This document shows positions 4,149 through 38,146 of a stretch of DNA of 51,017 nucleotides, piece after piece (positions within the stretch are counted from its first letter, which is position 1; every line of letters starts with the position of its first letter). The notes under the pieces are model-generated. The model saw only the letters and a program-made list of their open reading frames with translations. It searched no databases and had not been told where the DNA came from. The stretch spans positions 1 to 51,017 of the forward strand of contig JAFGTW010000008.1 in NCBI GenBank assembly GCA_016938835.1, written 5' to 3'. This stretch comes from Patescibacteria group bacterium. Lineage in GTDB: Bacteria; Patescibacteriota; Patescibacteriia; Patescibacteriales; UBA12465. Position numbers and translations under genes: made by a program.

Positions 4149-4160
4149 CAAGTGAAACGA

Positions 4161-4255
4161 GGAGAGGTGAACAGACCGACTACTCGGTCTGTGTTCGGAA
4201 TCGAAATTCGCCAGTTGGCGGACGGCGAATCAGAGCAGCCCGACTCTGATCTCTT
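4161..4255 (+). repeat. GC-rich multi-hairpin element after tRNA-Pro with antisense T-arm copy
   Basis: Hairpins ACAGACCGA/TCGGTCTGT, ATTCGCC/GGCGAAT, ATCAGAG/CTCTGAT; GGAATCGAA (4197-4205) is the reverse complement of tRNA-Pro 4129-4137. Confidence 0.55.
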
Positions 4256-37465: not shown

Positions 37466-37708
37466 ATATTTATTATATCACGCCTAAGTAAATAGACTTA
37501 ACATAATATTAGCTATTTGTATTTTAGGTTTTTTAACCTGATTAAGCAATGATTGATAAATTTTACTTCACTATAAAAATAAATTAACAGATGAAGAATA
37601 AATTAATTTTAATCTTAGCTGAAGTAGTGGTTTAATCCTATTCAATTCCACAGCCTAAAAGCTGTCTAATTAAAAACAACTCCACAAAAATGAAGTTGTT
37701 TTTAATTA

Positions 37709-37925
37709 GTAGTCCCTAGGGGAGTTATCGCGCTCGCTTTTCTTCCGAAAAGCTCACTTGTCCAGAGTTGGCATCCAATATGCCCCCGGCATATTGTCCG
37801 ACATTTGTCTGCATCCTCACCGCTCAACATAGCGGCTCGGATTTGACTCATTTCCAACTTGTTCGACTCCCGCGCCTATGGCGCCATAAATAAAAGAGCA
37901 GTCATATGACTGCTCTTTTATTTAC
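37709..37925 (-). repeat. tRNA-Glu-associated structured element with 17-bp duplication of the tRNA 3' end
   Basis: GTAGTCCCTAGGGGAGT at 37709-37725 and 37926-37942; inverted T-arm GTTCGACTCCC at 37861-37871; multiple internal hairpins. Confidence 0.8.
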
Positions 37926-37926
37926 G

Positions 37927-37998
37927 TAGTCCCTAGGGGAGTCGAACCCCTCTTACCAGGATGAAAACCTGGTGTCCTAACCGATAGACGAAGGGACC
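37927..37998 (-). tRNA. tRNA-Glu(UUC)
   Basis: Acceptor GGTCCCT/AGGGACT, anticodon arm CCAGG-TTTTCAT-CCTGG; promoter TTGACA-17-TACAAT at 38042-38070. Confidence 0.94.
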
Positions 37999-38146
37999 AA
38001 GATAAAAAAATAGAACAAAAAAAGTTCTTATTTGCAAAAATATTGTATAGATATTTTTAAGCTTTGTCAAATTAATATTTATCTAATTTAACCTTAGTCT
38101 CACAATAATCTTGCCATTATTTAAAAAAACATTACAATTACTATAT

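Follow-up and report, generated by a model that had tools for sequence, protein, structure and literature searches.

The 3' ends of tRNA genes are classic landing pads for islands and prophages, and sublocation classes for the integrative islands at these genes were reportedly laid out by Williams in 2002. To our knowledge, each known integrase serves a single tRNA, and recognisable transposases are few in Patescibacteria. MITEs (miniature inverted-repeat transposable elements) and cis-mobilisable elements are non-autonomous derivatives, the latter keeping only their attachment sites. Recombination sites that act as folded single strands include integron attC and the attP hairpin of the filamentous phage CTX, which uses host Xer recombinases, and the guide RNAs of mobile elements include the bridge RNA of IS110 and the omega RNA of IS200/IS605 TnpB or IscB. 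Tycheposons, as portrayed in the part of the preprint consulted, are islands that integrate at tRNA genes and have partial-tRNA repeats on their flanks, each integrase serving one tRNA (bioRxiv 10.1101/2020.12.28.424599); the consulted part of a 2026 preprint on noncoding clusters names IS110 bridge RNA and omega RNA as known classes. Here we analyze an element of 217 nucleotides (nt) behind a tRNA-Glu gene in a 51,017-nt stretch of DNA (the window: positions 1 to 51,017 of contig JAFGTW010000008.1, assembly GCA_016938835.1) from a Patescibacteria group bacterium. The reading that we favor, in which our confidence is evenly balanced, is that these 217 nt are one copy of a family of non-autonomous, non-coding integrative cassettes of Patescibacteria aimed at tRNA 3' ends.

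All parts of the element lie on the minus strand and are given in the orientation of the tRNA. The intact host gene, tRNA-Glu(UUC), occupies 37926-37998 (ARAGORN, anticodon ttc; Rfam tRNA model, 57 bits). Behind it stands a 40-nt terminator-like perfect palindrome with A/T tracts (term1, 37886-37925; inner 30-nt perfect palindrome at 37891-37920), followed by a small GC hairpin, GGCGCCATAGGCGC (37872-37885), which is present only in Glu-associated copies and perhaps derives from an inverted copy of tRNA positions 62-68 that has decayed. The outer A/T tracts of term1, and not its inner stem, are common to sister copies in other genera, and term1 came in with the cassette. Next comes the 5' arm of 11 nt, GGGAGTCGAAC (37861-37871), the exact reverse complement of tRNA-Glu positions 53-63, GTTCGACTCCC. 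The conserved GC-rich core of ~135 nt (37726-37860) holds helix P2 (37854-37859 with 37766-37771), hairpin P3 (about 37809-37848), which varies among subfamilies, helix P4 (37776-37796) with a conserved GGGGG loop, and helix P5 (37736-37753). The element ends in a tail, ACTCCCCTAGGGACTAC (37709-37725), a direct copy of tRNA positions 58-74 that is identical to the last 17 nt of tRNA-Glu and makes with 37926-37942 the 17-nt direct repeat expected to flank the inserted DNA of an island. Arm and tail overlap at tRNA positions 58-63 and pair there, the first 6 nt of the arm with 37720-37725, to form the stem P1 that closes the core, the tail supplying its 3' strand. We take the unit to be ordered as terminator, short spacer, 11-nt arm, ~135-nt four-helix core and copy of tRNA positions 58-74.

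A first-pass annotation, made by a model from the letters, had named the tRNA-Glu, the palindrome, the GC hairpin, the antisense arm, the nested hairpins and the 17-nt copy; all lie where it placed them, and its four named helices are all present in the minimum-free-energy fold. That fold, computed for 186 nt, reaches -67.7 kcal/mol (z = -4.19), and none of 200 shuffles folds as well. The element has a G+C content of 47-52%, compared with 20-38% in its surroundings. The further idea of a tRNA-mimic regulator fared less well. ARAGORN calls only the tRNA on this stretch, with no tRNA-like or tmRNA call, and the element lacks a 5' acceptor strand; because its closing stem (positions 58-63 with the arm) is shifted relative to the real T-stem, it is not a T-arm mimic.

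The element belongs to a family. BLAST against its own genome detected two more copies, one at 88% identity on contig C53 and a partial one on contig C33; the latter lies behind tRNA-Val(UAC) with both arms altered to suit tRNA-Val. A covariance model was built from 15 copies in ten genomes, whose aligned length is nearly constant at about 171 nt. With this model the 0.8-Mb genome of origin holds four strong, intact copies and one decayed match, a lower bound since repeats behind tRNAs probably break the assembly. Matches occur in 79 of 148 genomes at the family level, where a single genome may have as many as 17, and, at the order level, in 41 of 151 genomes and 9 of 26 families; the stricter filters used on large genome sets miss diverged copies, as in genome G003, which scored none yet has a recognisable variant. 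Presence within the genus is patchy (7 of 15 genomes), and unit length is constant (median 170 nt). The expectation of the first-pass annotation that similar architecture would be found at other tRNAs and in other genomes is thereby borne out across the family and the order.

For linkage to tRNA genes 69 copies were analyzed, namely 43 of 46 from best-hit loci, a set biased to intact copies because it was chosen by score, and 26 of 27 from stretches of genomes G133 and G125; one duplicate locus, two weak tandem remnants and one match at E = 0.01 were left out. Forty-nine of the 69 lie 4-61 nt (mostly 42-61) behind a tRNA on the same strand, and these span 18 anticodon classes and 11 amino acids; tRNA-Lys(CUU) in genome G234 is a nineteenth class. 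One copy sits in tandem behind another, and 19 have no tRNA within reach, four of these at contig ends; the others, as read from maps and junctions, are tandem followers or are parted from their tRNA by genes. Of the 26 copies from G133 and G125, which were not selected, 18 are directly tRNA-adjacent, and the maps make the other 8 tandem followers or copies separated by cargo genes. A terminator stands between tRNA and element in nearly all copies.

The two arms follow the resident tRNA. The tail equals the last 16 nt of that tRNA in 33 of the 49 tRNA-adjacent copies and matches at 14 or more of the 16 positions in 40. Compared with the reverse complement of tRNA positions 53-63, the arm agrees at all 11 positions in 30 copies, at 10 in 13, at 9 in 5 and at 8 in one, so that 43 of 49 match at 10 or more; when all 11 T-arm types are compared, a copy fits its own type uniquely best in 33 cases and ties for best in 9. 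Even rare T-loops are mirrored: GTCCGA of Gly-UCC as TCGGAC, GTTCAAG of Ala-GGC as CTTGAAC and GACCCCC of Asp as GGGGGTC, and the unusual T-loop of Leu-CAG is also mirrored exactly. The match between arm and tRNA seldom extends further 5'. A hand count of arm mismatches gave 11 wobble-compatible transitions and 8 incompatible ones, too weak a difference to use. These 49 copies in 18 anticodon classes confirm the earlier expectation that arm and 3' copy co-vary with the host tRNA.

The comparison with tRNA islands and tycheposons, as far as the consulted part of the tycheposon preprint describes them, is close in several respects. The target is likewise the 3' part of a tRNA gene, the direct repeat extends from T-loop to 3' end, and the tRNA is regenerated; newcomers likewise push older units away from the tRNA, and arrays and degenerate remnants accumulate. 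Unlike these islands, however, the cassette has no integrase or any other gene, the unit is only about 210-220 base pairs (bp), one folded core serves at least 19 tRNA classes, and an antisense arm pairs with the repeat.

Gain, loss and exchange can be followed at orthologous loci. The region upstream of tRNA-Glu(UUC) is the same in three species of the genus. In G014 this locus carries tRNA, terminator and AT-rich spacer only, and supplies the empty-site relative that the first-pass annotation had called for; in G003 there is one unit of an older subfamily; and in the window a new unit lies between the tRNA and an older, now decayed one. Traces of the older unit are seen directly below the element. 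A second terminator-like palindrome (term2, 37667-37708, minus strand) is orthologous to the terminator directly behind tRNA-Glu in G003, and we therefore assign it to the older cassette, pushed downstream. It is followed at about 37634-37666 on the same strand by a hairpin, GACAGCTTTTAGGCTGT, and then by a decayed arm and core start, GGAATTGAATAGGATT, recognised by comparison with loci L018 and L010 and scoring nothing with the covariance model. The extent of ~217 bp first given to the element thus stands for the unit, but the limits of the affected region are wider. At the tRNA-Ser(UGA) locus, tRNA, 17-nt copy, term2 and flank are orthologous between G133 and G125, whereas terminator, arm and core, that is, everything between the repeats, are unrelated; this looks like a cassette exchange.

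Cores also recur at different tRNAs. The window core is about 95% identical to the core behind tRNA-Gly(GCC) in G164, which belongs to another genus, whereas terminator, spacer and tail are unrelated. A tree of cores shows no grouping by tRNA, and G133 has near-identical cores behind tRNA-Cys, behind tRNA-Ser and at three sites parted from their tRNA. In G234, 4.5 perfect 208-nt tandem units stand behind tRNA-Lys, and many copies elsewhere are truncated or decayed. Units stack in arrays, and older copies are pushed from the tRNA and decay.

The fold of the core is under selection and is kept by compensatory changes. RNAalifold, run on the 15-copy alignment, found 34 pairs, 16 of them with compensatory changes. 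Over 45 distinct sequences, 93.3% of cells are standard pairs compared with 79.5% in shuffles, none of 500 shuffles reaches the observed value, and both sides change in 25 of the 34 pairs; sliding the partners by 1-3 columns lowers pairing to 32-42%. The alignment in this test was fitted to the model, which favors structure, and the independent RNAalifold result agrees with it. The core junctions GGAA(A/G)nGAG, GTCGGAC, GGA(C/T)GCCAAC, GGACAAGTGAG and GCGAGCGCGATA are conserved. There is no sign of coding: codon periodicity is absent (entropy by codon phase 0.851, 0.851 and 0.895; permutation p = 0.91), and the longest open frames lie in different phases among copies, without a shared start. 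Since the long stop-free stretches fall in different frames, they fit a compositional effect. These results, together with the linkage to tRNA genes, bear out the earlier description of a non-coding, geneless, tRNA-tied element. Rfam 15 recognised only tRNA and rRNA at threshold in the window, and on the core, with E up to 10, gave chance-level matches only (11-18 bits against cut-offs of 35-103); the core is outside the families of Rfam 15 at their gathering scores.

Conservation of this kind also suits a host small RNA gene. Such a gene would yield a trailer RNA that is co-transcribed with the tRNA by read-through of term1 and released by 3' processing, with closing stem and single-stranded tail drawn from the tRNA sequence. 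Its role would lie in tRNA metabolism or in island traffic, for instance by serving as a decoy attachment site, and its copies would multiply by duplication, with gene conversion keeping them alike. We regard this as possible yet rather unlikely, and it is a serious rival because, where two species share the orthologous Glu-UUC locus, the near-identical core is far better conserved than the diverged terminator and flanks. Conserved junctions and strong covariation fit it equally. So does the strand: G-U exceeds A-C mismatches on the tRNA strand (110 vs 29 over all pairs, 24 vs 13 in the five best helices), which speaks modestly for the tRNA strand as the one that folds, but the count leans toward the strand on which the model was built. 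The sole promoter-like site upstream of the element on its strand is that of the tRNA, a sigma-70-like site (TTGACA, 17 nt, TACAAT; 38042..38070, minus strand) that agrees with the consensus at 11 of 12 positions and is known as a consensus match only. Some copies, moreover, lie inside tRNA clusters (Ala-CGC / element / Pro-CGG; Leu-CAG / element / Val-CAC). A host gene would not be expected, however, to be patchy among congeners and to range from 0 to 17 copies, to be truncated or decayed so often, to form arrays of identical tandem units, or to leave one orthologous site empty and have one cassette replaced whole; and the terminator separates tRNA from element in nearly all copies.

As an integrative cassette, the unit would come and go through recombination inside the 17-nt identity segment at the tRNA 3' end, and the tRNA gene would stay whole because the unit brings its own terminator. 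The folded module of arm, core and copy would be recognised by an enzyme acting in trans, either as RNA read through from the tRNA promoter or as folded single-stranded DNA. A folded nucleic acid is proposed as the recognition module because the conserved fold is closed by a stem of target-derived arms. The arm would be a guide-like sequence across the T-loop and T-stem of the target (positions 53-63), and retargeting among the 11 T-arm types would need a single arm change, whereas the acceptor part would have to be replaced. Arm and copy form a 6-bp inverted repeat, and the 17-nt repeat can be read either as a duplication or as the identity segment. Locus L060 is informative here: arm and left part of the tail agree with one another (tRNA-Gln CUG type) and disagree with the resident tRNA-Gln(UUG), so these parts move together with the element and the crossover is placed further 3'. 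This one informative copy argues against a plain target duplication. A long target duplication including the terminator is rejected, since term1 and term2 are unrelated both in the window and in G019.

The enzyme was sought in five high-copy genomes. The IS110 DEDD domain (PF01548) and TnpB (PF07282) were found in none of the five, a Y1 transposase above cut-off in one, Rep_ORF2-G2P in three and reverse transcriptase in four. Tyrosine recombinase, Xer-like, alone among the families tested, was found in all five; G125 and G234 each have a single Xer-like tyrosine recombinase, and the genome of the window has two tyrosine recombinases. IS605-orfB-I, the sole guide-RNA family among the Rfam hits, scored 12.9 bits on the core against a gathering score of 94.2, and no autonomous parent with the same ends was found in the 69 element neighbourhoods.

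Reverse transcriptases in four of the five genomes, and arms that look tRNA-templated, raise the thought of a retroelement, copied through RNA by reverse transcriptase with its tail taken from a tRNA molecule. We consider this very unlikely. The tail is a sense copy of the tRNA 3' end and not the complement that would bind a primer, which speaks against the tRNA-primed route envisaged in the first-pass annotation. According to our reading of the junctions, CCA is absent after the copies, apart from two cases that seem due to chance, and copying from mature tRNA is rejected as well. RNA-mediated movement, also once suggested, is further disfavored: no reverse transcriptase adjoins any element in the neighbourhood maps, and G157, with 15-16 copies at 99% completeness, has no reverse transcriptase match.

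Several results weigh against an integrative cassette. The unit contains no recombinase, indeed no gene at all, and G125, with 10 copies, has no match to serine recombinase, IS110, TnpB, Y1 transposase or Rep. An association with recombinases, raised at the outset, does not appear for serine recombinase (both present in 51 genomes, element only in 28, recombinase only in 41, neither in 28; odds ratio 1.24, descriptive only because the genomes are related). The cassette reading leaves unexplained how the 17-nt copy is renewed when a near-identical core appears at another tRNA, and recombination or gene conversion between resident units could yield shared cores without transposition. A double-stranded circle of 208-217 bp would be an awkward substrate for recombination. 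The conservation of the core at the orthologous Glu-UUC locus, set out above, belongs here too. No excised form, empty-site read or transcript was seen in two DNA and two metatranscriptome runs, of which contigs only were covered and which give no verdict; RNA cover in the metatranscriptome contigs was of tRNA only, from other organisms, and one RNA-library contig (run X20) that joins island end, terminator and element start may be DNA carry-over. Among sequencing runs searched, the stretch turned up only in two DNA runs from a single study, possibly with the source sample among them. A viral contig collection gave no exact match to two conserved patterns, in an exact-match scan that is insensitive.

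Systems other than islands share parts of the design. Like MITEs and cis-mobilisable elements, the cassette is short, multi-copy, non-coding and presumably moved in trans, but its parent is missing from the 69 neighbourhoods, its inverted repeat is only the 6-bp overlap of arm and copy, and its interior is under structural selection. Like integron attC and the CTX attP, it conserves structure over sequence, has inverted half-sites that pair across a folded segment, would take its enzyme in trans and forms cassette arrays; in addition, islands encoding Rep (PF23343, 'Replication-associated protein ORF2/G2P') also occupy these tRNA ends in cassette genomes. The arm-copy closing stem exists and covaries, and the five high-copy genomes have an Xer-like tyrosine recombinase. 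Unlike these sites, the paired stem is only about 6 + 4 bp, and a tRNA T-arm is targeted in place of dif or attI.

The guide RNAs of IS110 and TnpB offer a third comparison. There too a structured scaffold of ~150 nt lies between short target-matching sequences, one arm being antisense and one sense, so that they could address both DNA strands, and the tail of the cassette abuts the 3' end of the scaffold as an omega guide does. In contrast, neither DEDD transposase nor TnpB is present in the five high-copy genomes, and the matches of the cassette copy an intact tRNA 50 nt upstream rather than the immediate flanks. The module might nevertheless be a programmable guide, as RNA or as a folded single strand, whose antisense arm (53-63) and sense tail (58-74) address both strands of the tRNA gene and lead a recombinase, host-encoded or unrecognised, to place the cassette at the tRNA 3' end. 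We hold this version to be unlikely; were it true, retargeting would take one to three arm nucleotides, and tRNA-specific integration would proceed without a dedicated transposase gene in the element.

As far as tested, the cassette lacks defining features of each of the nearest known systems. It is not described in the literature found by full-text search, the scope of which was main text; supplementary files may hold relevant clusters or partial-tRNA tables. In the 2026 preprint on noncoding clusters, the words Patescibacteria, integrase and attachment are absent, and its tRNA passages describe no such element.

Larger islands use the same tRNA ends. Where an element has no preceding tRNA, the DNA upstream of it terminates in a short pseudo-tRNA end unlike the element arms, with cargo genes before it. 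At L035 the cargo between tRNA and element comprises Fic and CYTH genes, at L036 a serine recombinase, Rep (PF23343) and a Macro-domain gene; further cargo open reading frames (ORFs) in G133 are, as a guess from their sequences, a peptidase E-like protein, methyltransferases, a radical-SAM protein, a deaminase and a Nudix protein. It seems that these islands inserted themselves between the tRNA and the element already resident there. In the genome of the window, contig C49 (1-9000) carries beside tRNA-Gln(UUG) an island with a 556-amino-acid (aa) serine recombinase, Rep PF23343, a P-loop NTPase-like ORF and a 595-aa ORF, which possibly represents an integrated element of filamentous-phage-like or rolling-circle type. 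Contig C39 ends in another, second copy of tRNA-Gln(UUG).

Such islands invite the reading that the elements are passive scars, functionless distal attachment-site remnants of integrase-bearing islands or prophages at tRNA 3' ends. Islands between tRNA and element at several loci (L035, L036), the serine-recombinase and Rep island beside tRNA-Gln, and the fact that partial-tRNA repeats are the normal footprint of islands in the consulted part of the tycheposon study (bioRxiv 10.1101/2020.12.28.424599) are in its favor. Scars would not be expected, however, to have a constant length of ~170 nt, five covarying helices and 95% identity across genera; the island ends bear their own, different pseudo-tRNA ends, and an antisense arm is foreign to a normal attachment-site scar. 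We consider this explanation very improbable.

Among named records, the cassette is carried by Candidatus Falkowbacteria, Patescibacteria group and Candidatus Paceibacterota. A few records confirmed by the model bear other titles ('Gammaproteobacteria', 'Bacillota', 'bacterium'), labels that we suspect to be wrong. A scan of genome contigs with a 19-mer pattern gave 65 stretches, which were then scored by the covariance model; those from a Solirubrobacteraceae metagenome-assembled genome (MAG), Bifidobacteriaceae, Blastocatellia, Nitrospira and Chthonomonas received no score. The Solirubrobacteraceae MAG, which is GC-rich and actinobacterial, has the 19-nt pattern on many contigs (L089-L140), none scored by the model, and presumably harbors an unrelated repeat that shares the word. 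In the genome of the window, several of the contigs C20, C23, C33, C39, C50 and C53 stop exactly at a tRNA gene or just past it (Ser-GGA, Glu-CUC, His, Gln-UUG, Gln-CUG), and the element on C53 begins 58 nt from a contig terminus that has the sequence of a tRNA-Glu 3' end.

Other observations concern small palindromes in and around the units. A GC palindrome of 18-24 nt (CCTGCCTGCCGGCAGGCAGG and variants) is inserted at differing points in the tRNA-copy or core of several otherwise normal copies in different genomes (L036, 5022-5042; also L019, L068, L075, L155 and L018), and looks like a tiny hairpin insertion element in its own right. Sister-unit terminators (window 37886-37925 and 37667-37708; L018 and L010) keep their outer A/T tracts and have wholly different yet perfectly paired inner GC stems, which indicates either very fast turnover or exchange. 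In G019, copies L007 (about 1454-1492) and L032 share the first terminator and hairpin with the terminator loop inverted (TCAGAGA vs TCTCTGA), as if the palindrome had been flipped. Elsewhere in the window (4150-4250, plus strand), a GC-rich stretch of ~100 nt lies flush against tRNA-Pro(GGG), no terminator intervening. Within it stands GGAATCGAA, a near-complement of the tRNA-Pro(GGG) T-loop; the stretch may be a fragment of this cassette family or of a related one, and the covariance model gives it no score. Weak matches to the model elsewhere in the window (9 bits or less) were set aside as noise.

A cassette with two arms derived from host tRNA points to a novel means by which a mobile element may be aimed at tRNA genes: one small, geneless, folded module stands behind at least 19 tRNA classes, with up to 17 copies, in genomes that may be smaller than 1 Mb. 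Should the arms be responsible for targeting, the system would offer a simple and naturally reprogrammable means of aiming DNA insertion, and the spread of mobile DNA in Patescibacteria would become testable. If the element is instead a host RNA, it would represent an abundant, unannotated RNA class tied to tRNA genes. In either reading, the element accounts for assembly breaks behind tRNA genes in such genomes and marks the growing edge of their variable regions.

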